A stretch of DNA of 7,073 nucleotides, taken from a virus. Taxonomy: Duplodnaviria > Heunggongvirae > Uroviricota > Caudoviricetes. This document shows, one piece after another, positions 1 to 7,073 of the stretch. Position 1 is the stretch's first letter; each line of letters begins with the position of its first letter. The stretch lies in IMG/VR virus record IMGVR_UViG_2695420403_000001; one strand, written 5' to 3'. Position numbers and translations under genes: made by a program. The notes under the pieces are model-generated. The model was not told the origin of the DNA and did no database searches. It worked only from the letters and a program-made list of their open reading frames with translations.

Positions 1-654
1 CGCCTTTATGGTAACGCCAGCGACCTGGTCACCATGATCAAAACGCTTTCCGGTGTCAGCCTCGGCAGCGATCTGCAACCGCGCGGTGTCTGGAAAACGG
101 ACAGTAAAACCACCGCCACAGCGACGCAGCAGCGTAACGTGGTTGCCAGCACCCTTCGTACGACTGCAATCAGCGAAGCGGCGTATGCCGTTACCCGATT
201 GCCTGCGCCAACAACTTCCGCGGTGATGCAGAATGCCGCAGTGGGGCAGTCAACAACACCCGCGCAGAGCACCGGCTGGCCTTCCGTCACGCATCCGGCA
301 CTGAACAATGCACCGGCGGTGAAAAACACGGTTGACCTGCCAACGTGGGAAGAGCTGACCGACATTCGCGACACACTGAATACGGCAATTGATAAGGAGT
401 TGTCCCGTACAACCAGTGATGTGCTGTTTCTGGCGCTGCGCCGGGTGAAAGCAGATCTGAATGCGGATATCAACACGCGCCTTGAACAGTCTGCGCGGAT
501 CATTCAGCGTACGCCGGATGAGGTTTTACCCGCGCTGGTGCTGGCGGCGACCTGGTTTGATAACGCGGCGCATGACGCGGACATTATCCGGCGCAATGCC
601 ATTACACATCCCGGCTTTGTGCCGGTGATCCCTCTGAAGGTGCCAGTGCAATGA
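1..654 (+). CDS. 3' portion of a tail-module protein whose 5' end lies outside the window; by position directly upstream of the hub gene, possibly the C-terminal region of a Mu N/gp43-type DNA circulation protein
   Basis: Frame 1 is open from base 1 to TGA at 652-654 (ORF track 34..654 is the Met-initiated part). Product has a Thr/Ala/Ser/Gln-rich low-complexity stretch followed by a probable helical C-terminal domain. Stop overlaps the next start (ATGA). Function is assigned by synteny only. Confidence 0.5.
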   Translation, partial: RLYGNASDLVTMIKTLSGVSLGSDLQPRGVWKTDSKTTATATQQRNVVASTLRTTAISEAAYAVTRLPAPTTSAVMQNAAVGQSTTPAQSTGWPSVTHPALNNAPAVKNTVDLPTWEELTDIRDTLNTAIDKELSRTTSDVLFLALRRVKADLNADINTRLEQSARIIQRTPDEVLPALVLAATWFDNAAHDADIIRRNAITHPGFVPVIPLKVPVQ

Positions 655-1730
655 ACGATAACGTCACGCTACGGGTAAATGGCCGGGAGTGGAATGGCTG
701 GACATCGGTGCGCATCGGTGCCGGTATTGAACGGCTGGCACGGGATTTCAGTGTGGAGATCACCCGCCAGTGGCCGGGAGATGAGTGTATCACCACGCTT
801 CAGCCGCGTATTAAAAACGGTTCAAAAGTGGAAGTTCTGATTGGTGATGAGCTGGTGATCACCGGCTGGGTGGAGGCGACGCCCGTTCGTTACGATGCCC
901 GTTCGGTCAGCACCGGTATTGCCGGACGCAGTCTGACCGCTGACCTGATTGACTGTGCAGCCGAATCGACACAGTTTAACGGACGATCGCTGGTACAGAT
1001 TGCGCAGGCGCTTGCTGCGCCTTTCGGCATTGAGGTGGTGAACAACAGTGCGCCGTCGGGTGTTATTCCTGATGTCCAGCCTGATCACGGCGAAACGGTG
1101 ATTGAGGTGATCAACAAAATACTCGGTCAGCAGCAGGCACTGGCTTACGACGACCCGCACGGCAGGCTGGTGATTGGCGGTATTGGCTCAACGCGGGCAC
1201 ATACCGCGCTGGTACTTGGGGAAAATATCCTTTCCTGTGATACGGAGAAGAGTATCCGGGAGCGGTTTTCTGTTTACCAGGTGGCGGGGCAGCGTGCCGG
1301 AAACGACGATGATTTCGGTGAGGCCACCACCACCGCGCTGCGGGCCCGCACAGAGGACGCATTTATTGCCCGTTACCGTCCGATGTATATCAGGCAGACA
1401 GGGCAGGCTACGGGGGCAGGCTGTATTGCCCGTGCGGACTTTGAAGCCCGACAACGGGCGGCGCGGACGGATGAAACCACCTATGTGGTTCAGGGCTGGC
1501 GACAGGGTAACGGTACGCTGTGGCAGCCCAACCAGCGGGTGATTGTCTTCGATCCGGTCTGTGGTTTCGACAATACCGAACTGCTTGTCTCGGAAGTCAC
1601 GTTTACTCAGGACCAGAACGGCACCCTGACGGAAATCCGTGTCGGCCCACCTGATGCTTATCTGCCTGAACCCGAAGCCCCCGGCGCGCGGAAAAAGAAA
1701 AAAGCCAGAGTACAGGAGGACCCGTTCTGA
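651..1730 (+). CDS. Baseplate hub protein, Mu gp44 (gene P)-like; 359 aa
   Basis: Complete ORF, ATG 651 to TGA 1728-1730. Present in three full copies plus one fragment whose differences are almost all third-codon-position changes in this frame. Size and position upstream of a gpV-type spike gene fit the Mu P / P2 gpD hub family. Weak SD-like GAAGG about 10 nt upstream. Function by recognition and synteny, not verified. Confidence 0.7.
   Translation: MNDNVTLRVNGREWNGWTSVRIGAGIERLARDFSVEITRQWPGDECITTLQPRIKNGSKVEVLIGDELVITGWVEATPVRYDARSVSTGIAGRSLTADLIDCAAESTQFNGRSLVQIAQALAAPFGIEVVNNSAPSGVIPDVQPDHGETVIEVINKILGQQQALAYDDPHGRLVIGGIGSTRAHTALVLGENILSCDTEKSIRERFSVYQVAGQRAGNDDDFGEATTTALRARTEDAFIARYRPMYIRQTGQATGAGCIARADFEARQRAARTDETTYVVQGWRQGNGTLWQPNQRVIVFDPVCGFDNTELLVSEVTFTQDQNGTLTEIRVGPPDAYLPEPEAPGARKKKKARVQEDPF
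1714..1719 (+). promoter_or_regulatory. Shine-Dalgarno (AGGAGG) for the spike gene, embedded in the 3' end of the hub gene
   Basis: AGGAGG lies 10 nt upstream of ATG 1730. The same element recurs at 4333-4338, 5768-5773 and 6421-6426 in the other copies. Confidence 0.6.
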
Positions 1731-2278
1731 TGAGGACGATTGAAGCCATGCAGCGACAACTTCTCGGCCTTATTGGGCGGGCAGTGGTGAAAAGCATCAG
1801 TGCCGCCACGAAATGTCAGACCGTGGATGTGTCCCTGATTGCCGGTGAACCCAAAGCCGGGGTTGAACATCTTGAACCCTACGGTTTTACCGCAAGGGCA
1901 AACAGCGGTGCGGAAGCGGTGGTGTTGTTTCCGGATGGCGACCGTTCTCATGCGGTGGTTGTTACGGTGTCGGACCGGCGCTACCGCCTGAAAGGGCTGC
2001 AGACGGGTGAGGTGGCTGTCTATGACGATCAGGGGCAGTCTGTGACGCTGACCCGGGAGGGGATCGTGGTGGACGGTGCAGGTAAAACGATCACGTTTCG
2101 CAATGCGCCCAGAGCACGTTTTGAAATGGACCTAGAAGTGACCGGACAGGTGAAAGACCTGTGCGACTCCGGCGGCACCACCATGTCAGCGATGCGGCTT
2201 GCCTATAACGGCCATCGTCACAGAGAGAACGGTCAGGGCAGTAACACCGACAAACCGGATAAAGCGATGGAGGCATGA
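1730..2278 (+). CDS. Baseplate assembly protein V / central spike, Mu gp45- or P2 gpV-like; 182 aa
   Basis: Complete ORF, ATG 1730 overlapping the upstream stop (TGATG), stop TGA 2276-2278. N-terminal region typical of gpV-type OB-fold proteins and a C-terminal His-x-His (HRH, 2213-2221) as in metal-binding phage spike tips. Strong SD upstream. Confidence 0.75.
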   Translation: MRTIEAMQRQLLGLIGRAVVKSISAATKCQTVDVSLIAGEPKAGVEHLEPYGFTARANSGAEAVVLFPDGDRSHAVVVTVSDRRYRLKGLQTGEVAVYDDQGQSVTLTREGIVVDGAGKTITFRNAPRARFEMDLEVTGQVKDLCDSGGTTMSAMRLAYNGHRHRENGQGSNTDKPDKAMEA

Positions 2279-2618
2279 TGGAACTGTGGCTGACGGTGAA
2301 CGGTAAACGCACCTGCGCCAGCGCACCGCTGGATCCGCTGACCCGCGCCGTGGTGATTTCCCTGTTCACCTGGCGGCGGGCGGAGCCTGATGACAATGCC
2401 GACGTCCCGATGGGATGGTGGGGGGATACCTGGCCTGCGGTACAGAATGACCGTTACGGCTCCCGACTGTGGCTGCTTCAGCGCAGCAAACTGACCAATC
2501 AGCTGGTGCAGACGGTAAGGGGGTATATCCGCGAATGCCTGCAATGGATGATTGATGACGGCGTGGTGTCCCGTATTGATCTGGATATCCGCCGCACCGG
2601 GATTAATGAACTGGGTAA
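2278..2618 (+). CDS. Phage GP46-family baseplate protein (Mu gp46-like), 5' part only; truncated by the N run
   Basis: Starts at ATG 2278 (GGAGG 2269-2273 gives about 4 nt spacing; an alternative in-frame ATG at 2275 is too close to the SD). Translation MELWLTVNG...GWWGDTW...GSRLWLL is characteristic of GP46-family proteins as I recall them. ORF is interrupted by Ns at 2619. Confidence 0.7.
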
Positions 2619-2629
2619 NNNNNNNNNNN
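2619..2629. other. Assembly gap (11 N) joining unit A to unit B
   Basis: Run of n characters. Sequence on either side is not contiguous: upstream is the GP46-like gene, downstream restarts in the tail gene seen at the window start. Confidence 0.95.
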
Positions 2630-3273
2630 GTAACGCCAGCGACCTGGTCACCATGATCAAAACGCTTTCCGGTGTCAGCCTCGGCAGCGATCTGCAACCG
2701 CGCGGTGTCTGGAAAACGGACAGTAAAACCACCGCCACAGCGACGCAGCAGCGTAACGTGGTTGCCAGCACCCTTCGTACGACTGCAATCAGCGAAGCGG
2801 CGTATGCCGTTACCCGATTGCCTGCGCCAACAACTTCCGCGGTGATGCAGAATGCCGCAGTGGGGCAGTCAACAACACCCGCGCAGAGCACCGGCTGGCC
2901 TTCCGTCACGCATCCGGCACTGAACAATGCACCGGCGGTGAAAAACACGGTTGACCTGCCAACGTGGGAAGAGCTGACCGACATTCGCGACACACTGAAT
3001 ACGGCAATTGATAAGGAGTTGTCCCGTACAACCAGTGATGTGCTGTTTCTGGCGCTGCGCCGGGTGAAAGCAGATCTGAATGCGGATATCAACACGCGCC
3101 TTGAACAGTCTGCGCGGATCATTCAGCGTACGCCGGATGAGGTTTTACCCGCGCTGGTGCTGGCGGCGACCTGGTTTGATAACGCGGCGCATGACGCGGA
3201 CATTATCCGGCGCAATGCCATTACACATCCCGGCTTTGTGCCGGTGATCCCTCTGAAGGTGCCAGTGCAATGA
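2630..3273 (+). CDS. Second copy of the 3' portion of the upstream tail-module gene (same as 1..654), 5'-truncated at the gap
   Basis: By my base-by-base comparison 2630-3269 appears identical to 11-650. Stop TGA at 3271-3273. The ORF-track entry 2275..3273 is a chimera reading through the Ns. Confidence 0.5.
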
Positions 3274-4349
3274 ACGATAACGTCACGCTACGGGTAAATG
3301 GCCGGGAGTGGAATGGCTGGACATCGGTGCGCATCGGTGCCGGTATTGAACGGCTGGCACGGGATTTCAGTGTGGAGATCACCCGCCAGTGGCCGGGAGA
3401 TGAGGGTATCACCACGCTTCAGCCGCGCATTAAAAATGGTTCAAAAGTGGAAGTGCTGATTGGTGATGAGCTGGTGATCACCGGCTGGGTGGAGGCGACC
3501 CCCGTTCGTTACGATGCCCGTTCGGTCAGCACCGGTATTGCCGGACGTAGTCTGACTGCTGACCTGATTGACTGTGCAGCCGAACCGACACAGTTTAACG
3601 GACGATCGCTGGTACAGATTGCGCAGGCGCTTGCTGCGCCTTTCGGCATTGAGGTGGTGAACAACGGTGCGCCGTCGGGTGTTATTCCGGATGTCCAGCC
3701 TGATCACGGTGAAACGGTGATTGAGGTAATCAACAAAATACTCGGTCAGCAGCAGGCACTGGCTTACGACGACCCGCATGGCAGGCTGGTGATTGGCGGT
3801 ATTGGCTCAACGCGGGCACATACCGCGCTGGTACTTGGGGAAAACATCCTTTCCTGTGATACGGAGAAGAGTATCCGGGAGCGGTTTTCTGTTTACCAGG
3901 TGGCGGGGCAGCGTGCCGGAAACGACGATGATTTCGGTGAGGCCACCACCACCGCGCTGCGGGCCCGCACAGAGGACGCATTTATTGCCCGTTACCGTCC
4001 GATGTATATCAGGCAGACAGGGCAGGCTACGGGGGCAGGCTGTATTGCCCGTGCGGACTTTGAAGCCCGACAACGGGCGGCGCGGACGGATGAAACCACC
4101 TATGTGGTTCAGGGCTGGCGACAGGGTAACGGTACGCTGTGGCAGCCCAACCAGCGGGTGATTGTCTTCGATCCGGTCTGTGGTTTCGACAATACCGAAC
4201 TGCTTGTCTCGGAAGTCACGTTTACTCAGGACCAGAACGGCACCCTGACGGAAATCCGTGTCGGCCCACCTGATGCTTATCTGCCTGAACCCGAAGCCCC
4301 CGGCGCGCGGAAAAAGAAAAAAGCCAGAGTACAGGAGGACCCGTTCTGA
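3270..4349 (+). CDS. Baseplate hub protein, Mu gp44-like, copy 2; 359 aa
   Basis: Complete ORF colinear with 651..1730. Differs from copy 1 at about 13 positions, all within roughly the first 560 bp of the gene, of which 3 change the amino acid (C46G, S->P, S->G). Confidence 0.7.
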   Translation: MNDNVTLRVNGREWNGWTSVRIGAGIERLARDFSVEITRQWPGDEGITTLQPRIKNGSKVEVLIGDELVITGWVEATPVRYDARSVSTGIAGRSLTADLIDCAAEPTQFNGRSLVQIAQALAAPFGIEVVNNGAPSGVIPDVQPDHGETVIEVINKILGQQQALAYDDPHGRLVIGGIGSTRAHTALVLGENILSCDTEKSIRERFSVYQVAGQRAGNDDDFGEATTTALRARTEDAFIARYRPMYIRQTGQATGAGCIARADFEARQRAARTDETTYVVQGWRQGNGTLWQPNQRVIVFDPVCGFDNTELLVSEVTFTQDQNGTLTEIRVGPPDAYLPEPEAPGARKKKKARVQEDPF

Positions 4350-4659
4350 TGAGGACGATTGAAGCCATGCAGCGACAACTTCTCGGCCTTATTGGGCGGG
4401 CAGTGGTGAAAAGCATCAGTGCCGCCACGAAATGTCAGACCGTGGATGTGTCCCTGATTGCCGGTGAACCCAAAGCCGGGGTTGAACATCTTGAACCCTA
4501 CGGTTTTACCGCAAGGGCAAACAGCGGTGCGGAAGCGGTGGTGTTGTTTCCGGATGGCGACCGTTCTCATGCGGTGGTTGTTACGGTGTCGGACCGGCGC
4601 TACCGCCTGAAAGGGCTGCAGACGGGTGAGGTGGCTGTCTATGACGATCAGGGGCAGTC
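4349..4659 (+). CDS. gpV-type spike gene, copy 2, 3'-truncated at N 4660
   Basis: Appears identical to 1730-2040 of copy 1 and stops abruptly at a single N. Confidence 0.7.
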
Positions 4660-4660
4660 N
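4660..4660. other. Single-N junction between unit B and unit C
   Basis: Flanking sequence jumps from the middle of the spike gene to the last 15 codons of the upstream tail gene; this is not an ordinary ambiguous base call. Confidence 0.9.
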
Positions 4661-5815
4661 CATCCCGGCTTTGTGCCGGTGATCCCTCTGAAGGTGCCAG
4701 TGCAATGAACGATAACGTCACGCTACGGGTAAATGGCCGGGAGTGGAATGGCTGGACATCGGTGCGCATCGGTGCCGGTATTGAACGGCTGGCGCGGGAT
4801 TTCAGTGTGGAGATCACCCGCCAGTGGCCGGGAGATGAGGGTATCACCACGCTTCAGCCGCGCATTAAAAATGGTTCAAAAGTGGAAGTGCTGATTGGTG
4901 ATGAGCTGGTGATCACCGGCTGGGTGGAGGCGACCCCCGTTCGTTACGATGCCCGTTCGGTCAGCACCGGTATTGCCGGACGTAGTCTGACTGCTGACCT
5001 GATTGACTGTGCAGCCGAACCGACACAGTTTAACGGACGATCGCTGGTACAGATTGCGCAGGCGCTTGCTGCGCCTTTCGGCATTGAGGTGGTGAACAGC
5101 GATGCGCCGTCGGGTGTTATTCCGGATGTCCAGCCTGATCACGGTGAAACGGTGATTGAGGTGATCAACAAAATACTCGGTCAGCAGCAGGCGCTGGCTT
5201 ATGACGACCCGCACGGCAGGCTGGTGATTGGTGGTATTGGCTCAACGCGGGCACATACCGCGCTGGTACTTGGGGAAAACATCCTTTCCTGTGATACGGA
5301 GAAGAGTATCCGGGAGCGGTTTTCAGTTTACCAGGTGGCGGGGCAGCGTGCCGGAAATGACGATGATTTCGGTGAGGCCACCACCACCGCGCTGCGGGCC
5401 CGCACAGAAGACGCATTTATTGCCCGTTACCGTCCGATGTATATCAGGCAGACAGGGCAGGCTACGGGGGCAGGCTGTATTGCCCGTGCGGACTTTGAAG
5501 CCCGGCAACGGGCGGCGCGGACGGATGAAACCACCTATGTGGTGCAGGGCTGGCGACAGGGTAACGGTACGCTGTGGCAACCCAACCAGCGGGTGATTGT
5601 CTTTGATCCGGTCTGTGGTTTTGACAATACCGAACTGCTTGTTTCGGAAGTCACGTTTACTCAGGACCAGAACGGCACCCTGACGGAAATCCGTGTCGGC
5701 CCGCCTGATGCTTATCTGCCTGAACCTGAAGACCCCGGCGCGCGGAAAAAGAAAAAAGCCAGAGTACAGGAGGACCCGTTCTGATGAGGACGATTGAAGC
5801 CATGCAGCGACAACT
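4661..5815 (+). repeat. Module copy C, colinear with A positions 607-1761
   Basis: Offset 4054. Contains the last 15 codons plus stop of the upstream gene (4661-4708), a full hub gene, and the first 10 codons of the spike gene (5784-5815). Confidence 0.85.
4705..5784 (+). CDS. Baseplate hub protein, Mu gp44-like, copy 3; 359 aa
   Basis: Complete ORF. About 30 nucleotide differences from copy 1 by my manual count, with only about 5 amino-acid changes (C46G, S->P, NNSA->NSDA, A->D near the C-terminus). Confidence 0.7.
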   Translation: MNDNVTLRVNGREWNGWTSVRIGAGIERLARDFSVEITRQWPGDEGITTLQPRIKNGSKVEVLIGDELVITGWVEATPVRYDARSVSTGIAGRSLTADLIDCAAEPTQFNGRSLVQIAQALAAPFGIEVVNSDAPSGVIPDVQPDHGETVIEVINKILGQQQALAYDDPHGRLVIGGIGSTRAHTALVLGENILSCDTEKSIRERFSVYQVAGQRAGNDDDFGEATTTALRARTEDAFIARYRPMYIRQTGQATGAGCIARADFEARQRAARTDETTYVVQGWRQGNGTLWQPNQRVIVFDPVCGFDNTELLVSEVTFTQDQNGTLTEIRVGPPDAYLPEPEDPGARKKKKARVQEDPF

Positions 5816-5816
5816 N
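5816..5816. other. Single-N junction between unit C and unit D
   Basis: Sequence jumps from codon 11 of the spike gene to an internal codon of the hub gene (equivalent to position 1110 of copy 1). Confidence 0.9.
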
Positions 5817-6437
5817 ATCAACAAAATACTCGGTCAGCAGCAGGCACTGGCTTACGACGACCCGCATGGCAGGCTGGTGATTGGCGGTATTGGCTCAACG
5901 CGGGCACATACCGCGCTGGTACTTGGGGAAAACATCCTTTCCTGTGATACGGAGAAGAGTATCCGGGATCGGTTTTCAGTTTACCAGGTGGCGGGGCAGC
6001 GTGCCGGAAACGACGATGATTTCGGTGAGGCCACCACCACCGCGCTGCGGGCCCGCACAGAGGACGCATTTATTGCCCGTTACCGTCCGATGTATATCAG
6101 GCAGACAGGGCAGGCTACGGGGGCAGGCTGTATTGCCCGTGCGGACTTTGAAGCCCGGCAACGGGCGGCGCGGACGGATGAAACCACCTATGTGGTGCAG
6201 GGCTGGCGACAGGGTAACGGTACGCTGTGGCAACCCAACCAGCGGGTGATTGTCTTTGATCCGGTCTGTGGTTTTGACAATACCGAACTGCTTGTTTCGG
6301 AAGTCACGTTTACTCAGGACCAGAACGGCACCCTGACGGAAATCCGTGTCGGCCCGCCTGATGCTTATCTGCCTGAACCTGAAGACCCCGGCGCGCGGAA
6401 AAAGAAAAAAGCCAGAGTACAGGAGGACCCGTTCTGA
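5817..6437 (+). CDS. Baseplate hub gene, copy 4, 3' fragment (last 206 codons)
   Basis: In frame with the hub ORF and ends at TGA 6435-6437. The ORF-track entry 5784..6437 is a chimera of the spike start plus this fragment. Carries one unique E->D change. Confidence 0.65.
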   Translation: MNKILGQQQALAYDDPHGRLVIGGIGSTRAHTALVLGENILSCDTEKSIRDRFSVYQVAGQRAGNDDDFGEATTTALRARTEDAFIARYRPMYIRQTGQATGAGCIARADFEARQRAARTDETTYVVQGWRQGNGTLWQPNQRVIVFDPVCGFDNTELLVSEVTFTQDQNGTLTEIRVGPPDAYLPEPEDPGARKKKKARVQEDPF

Positions 6438-6985
6438 TGAGGACGATTGAAGCCATGCAGCGACAACTCCTCGGCCTGATTGGGCGGGCCGTGGTGAAAA
6501 GCATCAGTGCCGCCACGAAATGTCAGACCGTGGATGTGTTCCTGATTGCCGGTGAACCCAAAGCCGGGGTTGAACATCTTGAACCCTACGGTTTTACCGC
6601 AAGGGCAAACAGCGGTGCGGAAGCGGTGGTGTTGTTTCCGGATGGCGACCGTTCTCATGCGGTGGTTGTTACGGTGTCGGACCGGCGCTACCGCCTGAAA
6701 GGGCTGCAGACGGGTGAGGTGGCGGTCTATGACGATCAGGGGCAGTCCGTGACGCTGACCCGGGAGGGGATCGTGGTGGACGGTGCAGGTAAAACGATCA
6801 CGTTTCGCAATTCACCTAAAGCACGTTTTGAAATGGACCTAGAAGTGACAGGACAGGTGAAAGACCTGTGCGACTCCAGCGGCACCACCATGTCAGCGAT
6901 GCGGCTTGCCTATAACGGGCATCGTCACAGAGAGAACGGTCAGGGCAGTAACACCGACAAACCTGATAAAGCGATGGAGGCATGA
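6437..6985 (+). CDS. gpV-type spike protein, copy 4; 182 aa
   Basis: Complete ORF colinear with 1730..2278. About 12 nucleotide differences from copy 1, including S->F, A->S, R->K and G->S replacements. Confidence 0.75.
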   Translation: MRTIEAMQRQLLGLIGRAVVKSISAATKCQTVDVFLIAGEPKAGVEHLEPYGFTARANSGAEAVVLFPDGDRSHAVVVTVSDRRYRLKGLQTGEVAVYDDQGQSVTLTREGIVVDGAGKTITFRNSPKARFEMDLEVTGQVKDLCDSSGTTMSAMRLAYNGHRHRENGQGSNTDKPDKAMEA

Positions 6986-7073
6986 TGGAACTGTGGCTGA
7001 CGGTGAACGGTAAACGCACCTGCGCCAGCGCACCGCTGGATCCGCTGACCCGCGCCGTGGTGATTTCCCTGTT
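6985..7073 (+). CDS. GP46-family baseplate gene, copy 4, 5' fragment running off the window
   Basis: ATG 6985 (alternative 6982) with the same GGAGG upstream; translation begins MELWLTVNGKRTCASAPLDPLTRAVVISL as in copy 1. Confidence 0.65.
   Translation, partial: MELWLTVNGKRTCASAPLDPLTRAVVISL

Follow-up and report, generated by a model that had tools for sequence, protein, structure and literature searches.

The window analysed here is the entire 7,073-bp record CYDW01000050.1 of the E. coli draft assembly GCA_001283865.2, deposited as a single-isolate assembly. This small scaffold is made up solely of repeats of a phage baseplate module, and both of its ends fall within the module. A literature search for CYDW01 or GCA_001283865 (project, pipeline) gave no matches. 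N characters occur only at three places, where they split the window into four pieces, called A to D below, with the following content:

1-2618, + strand: piece A, the longest copy; C-terminus of the DNA circulation gene (34-654), gp44/P-like hub gene (651-1730), gp45/V-like gene (1730-2278), N-terminal part of the GP46 gene, cut by the gap (2278-2618)
2619-2629, no strand: junction 1, 11 N, from the middle of the GP46 gene to the middle of the DNA circulation gene
2630-4659, + strand: piece B; C-terminus of the DNA circulation gene, complete hub gene (3270-4349), first 311 nt (~104 codons) of gp45
4660, no strand: junction 2, 1 N, from mid-gp45 to the end of the DNA circulation gene
4661-5815, + strand: piece C; last 15 codons of the DNA circulation gene, complete hub gene (4705-5784), first 10 codons of gp45
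5816, no strand: junction 3, 1 N, from the beginning of gp45 back to a point midway through the hub gene
5817-7073, + strand: piece D; C-terminal 207 codons of the hub gene, complete gp45 (6437-6985), start of the GP46 gene

All three joins truncate a gene. The hub protein (359 aa) carries the Pfam domains GpP-like_1st, Gp44-like_2nd and GpP_4th, the gp45/V protein (182 aa) Phage_Mu_Gp45, and the N-terminal 113 aa present of the GP46 protein the GP46 domain, in each case above the gathering score. Upstream of the hub lie the C-terminal 206 aa of a DNA circulation (or circularization) protein, identified by way of the RefSeq annotation given to the homologous region. No Rfam family matched the window on either strand.

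Collinear genes, Pfam domains and RefSeq annotation agree in describing an SfV/SfII-like tail module with a Mu-type baseplate. The Shigella flexneri serotype-converting phages SfII, SfIV, SfI and SfV match piece A along its full 2,618 bases at 97.5-97.9% nucleotide identity and have the same gene order: DNA circularization protein, baseplate hub, baseplate assembly protein V and GP46-type wedge subunit. The protein families also match those of the phage Mu baseplate genes 43-46 (DNA circulation, P/gp44 hub, gp45 spike, gp46). The likeness to Mu is however limited to the tail module, since the closest phages carry an integrase, an excisionase (xis), cI/cro/cII and a lambdoid-type terminase. No Mu-type transposase was found in the closest complete phages (these relatives, and not the source genome, were examined), and SfIV is reported to have no overall similarity to Mu (PMC3851460). 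Judged from these relatives, the elements appear to be lambdoid, integrase-carrying prophages of the SfV/SfII/SfI/SfIV type with a Mu-type tail module, and the "Mu-like prophages" of an earlier note on this DNA, made from its letters alone, is an imprecise term for them. In natural relatives the module sits in a complete-prophage context, downstream of the head, sheath, tube and tape measure genes; attachment sites near ssrA/smpB occur among them. SfV/SfII-type phages and closed genomes carry it once per prophage, followed by gp47/J, gp48 and the tail-fibre genes, whereas the window breaks it off three times, each time at Ns, and begins it anew.

The earlier note described one baseplate module in four copies, at offsets 2619, 4054 and 4707 and with different internal starting points. 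BLASTN comparison of piece against piece, together with the Pfam domains, confirmed this exactly. The four pieces are collinear, in the same order and all on the + strand, and each comparison gave a single gapless alignment in one coordinate frame, here that of piece A (A-coordinates). Piece B corresponds to A 11-2040 (offset 2619; 99.31% identity, 14 mismatches), piece C to A 607-1761 (offset 4054; 97.40%, 30 mismatches) and piece D to A 1110-2366 (offset 4707; 97.85%, 27 mismatches). Repetition of such length and identity lies far beyond chance expectation.

The pieces differ at 47 variant sites, without any indel. Thirty-seven of the 47 affect the third base of a codon (P = 2e-10), and 35 leave the amino acid unchanged. 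Because the differences are so overwhelmingly synonymous and third-position, the pieces would represent natural, selected and distinct intact alleles rather than errors; nearly all variant bases are indeed alleles seen in natural genomes. The claim that the copies are non-identical (97.4-99.3%), and not the duplication of one template, is well founded. Three haplotypes can be separated within 2 bp (A 1047-1048) and up to four within 46 bp (A 1226-1271). All 14 differences between B and A are confined to A-coordinates 786-1226, the two pieces being identical across stretches of 775 and 814 bp. Diversity-generating or cassette-type variation was also considered and rejected: the changes affect all genes and are for the most part synonymous substitutions at third positions, and every copy is truncated.

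Each piece has close natural matches: 98.9% for A (E. coli 2017-19-1CC), 98.9% for B, 99.7% for C (strain TUM12357) and 99.0% for D. Among retrievable alleles, none matched a piece at 100% on the DNA level (best 98.9-99.7%), so that single pieces may themselves be chimeric paths and the count of four templates is insecure. At the protein level, the hub allele of piece B is widespread (at least 1,000 contigs), that of piece C is listed by 669 blocks of the collection, and the gp45 allele of piece D is carried in normal context by other E. coli contigs. For the hub allele of piece A (CTX30165.1 / WP_139991977.1), CYDW01000050.1 is the only contig on record.

We then asked whether the junctions exist elsewhere. 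As the earlier note stated, every copy boundary in the window coincides with Ns (2619-2629, 4660 and 5816), and none of the three junctions contains real sequence, as a genuine tandem or segmental duplication would. Nor was the arrangement recovered from independent closed genomes. Among 5,426 complete E. coli genomes there is none in which the sequences beside junction 1, or those beside junction 2, adjoin. For junction 3 only normal collinear spacing was seen: in 67 of the 67 full-coverage places listed for complete E. coli genomes the two flanks lie 649-652 bp apart in normal gene order, and never at 401 bp; the exact junction-3 pattern had no match in 185,579 GTDB species representatives. 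The module itself is common: it is present in 1,109 of the 5,426 complete genomes, at 1,263 places, with a median of 1 and a maximum of 4 per genome. In closed strain 165, two intact collinear copies lie 376 kb from each other and align without gaps at 98.0% identity.

The positions at which the pieces end are informative. With polymorphism judged within the window or in a 14-allele panel (site density 5.3%), a polymorphic site is the immediate neighbour of six of the eight ends, the window's own two ends among them (binomial P about 6e-7). The polymorphic outward neighbours are A-coordinates 0, 606, 1109, 1762, 2041 and 2367. Piece A starts directly after A-coordinate 0, and piece D stops (A 2366) directly before 2367. 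Polymorphic sites adjoin both edges of junction 2, where piece B stops at A 2040 directly before variant site 2041 and the other edge meets A 606, as well as both edges of junction 3 (A 1762 and A 1109). The remaining two ends lie on either side of the 11-N gap. One of them, the left end of piece B, lies exactly 10 nt inside A-coordinate 1, the SNP-adjacent start of piece A. For the other, the right edge of piece A (2618), the panel contains no adjoining polymorphic site, the nearest being 2610 and 2628. Ends at polymorphic sites are a signature of contig breaks, or of stalled greedy extension, between near-identical repeat copies, since both graph assemblers and greedy gap-fillers come to a halt at such sites. 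SNP-adjacent break points offer a simple way to recognise such artefacts without reads.

As a separate observation, the 11-N gap agrees only in part with a single N to which 10 nt of trimmed edge are added: its right edge fits this reading (B starts at A 11), its left edge does not.

Taken together, the window is very probably an assembly artefact, in which partial contigs of several near-identical prophage modules were chained across gaps, and not a real tandem array. This is essentially the concatenation of related contigs by an assembler or scaffolder which the earlier note proposed, now supported by the N joins, the absence of the arrangement from closed genomes and the SNP-adjacent ends. 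The following scenario can be envisaged. The sequenced DNA would have contained three or more copies, probably four, of the SfV/SfII-like tail/baseplate module, near-identical to one another (about 97-99%). Short-read assembly would have failed to separate them and left partial contigs, breaking, or stalling in greedy extension, exactly at SNPs between copies. A paired-read scaffolder would then have chained the mutually overlapping pieces, since the stretches they share supply read pairs that connect one piece to another. Finally, a gap-filler would have extended the edges until a base was again ambiguous, and placeholders of 1 N or 11 N would have been left.

As for the software, Velvet, SSPACE and GapFiller are our guess, suggested by the accession type (ENA), the occurrence of single Ns and the offset of 10 nt. 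In SSPACE/GapFiller output, single Ns may stand for negative or over-filled gaps. The GapFiller paper holds no explicit statement on a single N in over-filled gaps (PMC3446322). It does describe gap edges grown base by base under a 0.7 majority-vote ratio, which applies at allelic differences, the trimming of 10 nt at gap edges, and difficult repeated areas that stay open (PMC3446322); SSPACE and GapFiller are both described as greedy programs that can make false joins (PMC5320598). The window resembles short-read misjoins of this type in its N-only joins, its edges stalling at allelic differences, its one 10-nt edge offset and its multi-copy repeat, which exceeds a short-read fragment in length; this behaviour agrees with how these algorithms are described in the literature.

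The source of the variants can be seen in two ways. We infer that the templates were co-resident prophages of one genome rather than those of mixed strains. In a mixed or contaminated culture, several E. coli strains would each contribute one SfV-like prophage; the scaffold would still be a scaffolding artefact, and only the origin of the variants would differ. Up to four haplotypes within 46 bp are compatible with such a mixture, as are the single copy in most module-carrying complete genomes, where four is the observed maximum, and the hub allele of piece A, unique to this record. Multi-copy closed genomes do exist, however, with the module at up to 4 places and strain 165 carrying two intact copies, and the record was deposited as a single isolate. 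We consider a mixed culture possible but rather unlikely, while nothing in the window itself separates it from several prophages in one genome.

Two other readings were considered. Recombination among co-resident SfV-like prophages could have produced a genuine array of truncated baseplate segments arranged head to tail, the Ns being short unassembled junctions. Co-resident homologous prophages are known recombination substrates, all pieces share order and orientation, and a scaffolder needs some read-pair support for its joins. Against this, real sequence is present at 0 of 3 junctions, the adjacency is absent from the 5,426 closed genomes, the break points fall at SNP positions and not at arbitrary recombination points, and the copies keep the codon-position pattern of intact selected genes although the joins truncate them. 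Unique flanking DNA that would anchor an array is absent, because both scaffold ends lie inside the repeat, at SNP-adjacent positions. An array of this kind is highly improbable, in keeping with the statement of the earlier note that it could not be demonstrated from this sequence. The repetition might instead be a software duplication of one locus, with errors on a single template, and the identity of A and B over 775 and 814 bp could mean that the same reads were assembled twice. Random errors, however, should hit all codon positions equally and be mostly non-synonymous, in contrast to the 37 of 47 third-position and 35 of 47 synonymous differences; moreover nearly all variant bases are natural alleles and indels are lacking. 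We regard this last explanation as scarcely credible.

The genes concerned are ordinary and well known, about one complete E. coli genome in five carries them, and the window is of no biological importance. The relevance of the chained prophage pieces is one of data hygiene only: records of this kind will continue to be flagged whenever sequences are scanned for repeats, gene fusions or cassette arrays. The false joins create three chimeric ORFs that run through the Ns (2278-3273, 4349-4708 and 5784-6437), and these are called as genes in the public collection. In addition, the possibly chimeric hub allele of piece A stands as a singleton with GenBank, RefSeq and UniRef identifiers.

Pairwise BLASTN brought each pair of pieces into a single gapless alignment. 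The 13 N of the window, at 2619–2629 (11 N), 4660 and 5816, delimit four such pieces (A to D), and positions along piece A serve here as common A-coordinates.

Genes of piece A and placement of pieces B to D
34–654, piece A: DNA circulation (circularization) protein, last 206 codons
651–1730, piece A: baseplate hub, 359 aa (Pfam GpP-like_1st, Gp44-like_2nd and GpP_4th, E values 1e-18 to 1e-27)
1730–2278, piece A: gp45/V protein, 182 aa (Phage_Mu_Gp45, E value 1.5e-24)
2278–2618, piece A: GP46 protein, first 113 codons (E value 1e-30)
2630–4659, piece B: A-coordinates 11–2040, offset 2619, 99.31% identity to A
4661–5815, piece C: A-coordinates 607–1761, offset 4054, 97.40% identity to A
5817–7073, piece D: A-coordinates 1110–2366, offset 4707, 97.85% identity to A

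Identities between B and C, B and D, and C and D were 98.3–98.9%. The alignments confirmed what an earlier note had read from the sequence: one gene set recurs with these offsets from unlike starting points, every copy boundary falls on an N, and the copies are not identical. An exact search with the hub protein of piece A gave one contig alone, CYDW01000050.1 (7,073 bp, range 1–7073) of the draft assembly GCA_001283865.2, so that the window is an entire small scaffold of that assembly.

Over the full length of piece A, the Shigella phages SfII, SfIV, SfI and SfV share 97.5–97.9% DNA identity with it, and E. coli prophages up to 98.9%. The SfII annotation includes integrase, excisionase, cI, cro, cII, terminase and gtr serotype-conversion genes. 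By this gene set, the relatives are temperate lambdoid phages in which the tail module is of Mu type, and not transposable phages like Mu; the ‘Mu-like prophages’ of the earlier note were therefore not borne out. SfIV was likewise described as being without overall similarity to Mu (PMC3851460). No Rfam family matched either strand of the window which, beyond the scaffolded module, holds nothing else of note.

The junctions were examined in all complete E. coli genomes (n = 5,426), using as query 200 bases on each side of the N run and counting flanks as adjacent if one place covered at least 80% of the query. Flanks of junction 1 (2619–2629) were adjacent in 0 of the 1,105 genomes matching the halves, and those of junction 2 (4660) in 0 of 1,092. 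Flanks of junction 3 (5816) lie ~250 bp apart in normal gene order, so that the search joins them. Each of the 8 best rows, and each of 59 full-coverage rows taken at even intervals down the ranking, gave a two-piece match spanning 649–652 bp, the normal collinear layout (A 1110–1761); the 401-bp span of a true junction 3 was absent from these 8 and 59 rows. Nor was the exact junction 3 pattern, allowing 0–25 unknown bases, found in 185,579 species (one genome each).

For every one of the eight piece ends, the adjoining outer base was then checked against a panel of 14 natural alleles built in A-coordinates. It was polymorphic at six ends: A-start (0), C-start (606), D-start (1109), C-end (1762), B-end (2041) and D-end (2367), and sites 1109, 1762 and 2041 also vary among the copies in the window. 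Given 155 polymorphic sites in 2,900 positions (5.3%), chance would yield at least six of eight with P = 6e-7; if the 47 sites that vary within the window are used alone, three of the six internal ends adjoin one (P = 1e-4). Both single-N gaps are SNP-adjacent on both edges, and the two remaining ends are the edges of the 11-N gap, where piece B starts (A-coordinate 11) exactly 10 nt inside coordinate 1, at which piece A starts after polymorphic site 0. SNP-adjacent edges are expected from contig breaks at branch points between near-identical repeats, or from greedy extension halting at the first ambiguous base. GapFiller, whose edge extension is of the kind that fits this pattern, uses a 0.7 majority-vote ratio ‘in a situation of allelic differences’ and trims gap edges by 10 nt by default (PMC3446322). 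The Sanger assembly-improvement paper describes both SSPACE and GapFiller as greedy, with false joins as a possible outcome (PMC5320598). The ENA-type form of the accession, together with the N pattern, suggests that GCA_001283865.2 may have been made with these programs.

Three ORFs stay in frame across the N junctions (2278–3273, 4349–4708 and 5784–6437), and the public collection lists them as genes of 331, 119 and 217 aa. In one, the N-terminus of GP46 is fused to the C-terminus of the circulation protein; in another, that of gp45 is fused to the final 15 aa of the same circulation protein; and in the third, the opening 10 aa of gp45 lead into the C-terminus of the hub. These are artificial fusion proteins, which protein databases may hold.

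Sequencing or consensus errors were rejected as the source of the differences between copies: 37 of the 47 variant sites are at third-codon positions (binomial P = 2e-10 versus one third), 35 are synonymous, there are no indels and nearly all variant bases occur as alleles in the natural panel. The sources of the pieces are therefore separate, intact genes under purifying selection. Three haplotypes are told apart within two adjacent bases (A 1047–1048) and four within 46 bp (A 1226–1271), so that the sequenced DNA contained at least three templates, and probably four. None of the natural alleles retrieved was DNA-identical to a piece (best 98.9, 98.9, 99.7 and 99.0% for A to D), and A and B differ only within A 786–1226, so that any one piece may be a chimeric path through the repeat graph. 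The hub allele of piece A (651–1730; CTX30165.1 / WP_139991977.1, Escherichia coli; UniRef n = 1) is on record only from this contig among ~15 billion proteins, and its bases 786T, 1047A and 1226T, among others, are absent from the panel. This allele, although it has a RefSeq identifier of its own, may be rare but real, or it may have arisen through misassembly.

The ‘four-fold reiterated baseplate module’ is thus a scaffold of overlapping partial contigs. Their source is a set of SfV/SfII-like prophage tail modules that are nearly identical to one another, and the joins between the contigs have no sequence support. Concatenation by an assembler or scaffolder, already proposed from the sequence, is supported and gains further weight from the closed-genome junction tests and the SNP-adjacent break points; a genuine rearranged array has nothing in its favour and is very improbable. 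As to the templates, a single E. coli genome with several prophages is the likely source, and a culture of several strains a distinctly less probable one. Several copies in one genome are plausible: the module is present in 1,109 of 5,426 complete E. coli genomes, at 1,263 places and up to four per genome. The closed chromosome of strain 165 (NZ_CP020509.1) carries the complete module twice, at a distance of 376 kb, and each copy lies in an uninterrupted series of tape-measure, circularization, hub, V, GP46, J, YmfQ and fibre genes. The two copies differ, gapless, at 52 sites over A-coordinates 1–2618 (98.0%), a divergence of the same kind and degree as between the pieces. In strain SX12, equal matches (98.9%) were observed at the chromosome record end (NZ_CP142783.1, 4857894–4860511) and in a separate 55.6-kb record (NZ_CP142787.1, 4835–7452); this pair of matches may reflect a prophage in excised or circular form, or else a single prophage assembled twice.

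Other observations concern public-collection loci with homologous tail genes. In L007 (GCA_949281505.1, CASDMF010000066.1), the head/tail-sheath region upstream of the module (1–6369) shows duplicated, fragmented gene calls, with the capsid called twice, the connector/HCP gene fused and the sheath split into pieces. This suggests a further assembly problem, or a frameshift-rich consensus, in another record of the SfV/SfII-like family. In the metagenome scaffolds L021 and L022, which carry the piece-D gp45 allele, most of the Baseplate_J call is missing (3063–3569) between GP46 and a 123-aa Baseplate_J_C fragment; as seen from the gene calls, either a deletion or a gap may account for this. Tail-fibre and fibre-assembly genes (Collar, Caudo_TAP, Gp53-like_C), downstream of the baseplate genes and beside a resolvase/DNA-invertase gene, lie in opposite orientations between genomes (L002 13677–15850 versus L004 13677–15853; also L008, L009 and L010), and look like a classical Gin/Pin-type invertible host-range segment in both states. 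Finally, GmrSD-family (PF03235/PF07510) and AbiTii genes located between the tail-fibre region and smpB (16104–19807 in L002, L004, L006 and L007) resemble cargo for anti-phage defence, carried at the end of the prophage next to an integration site near smpB.
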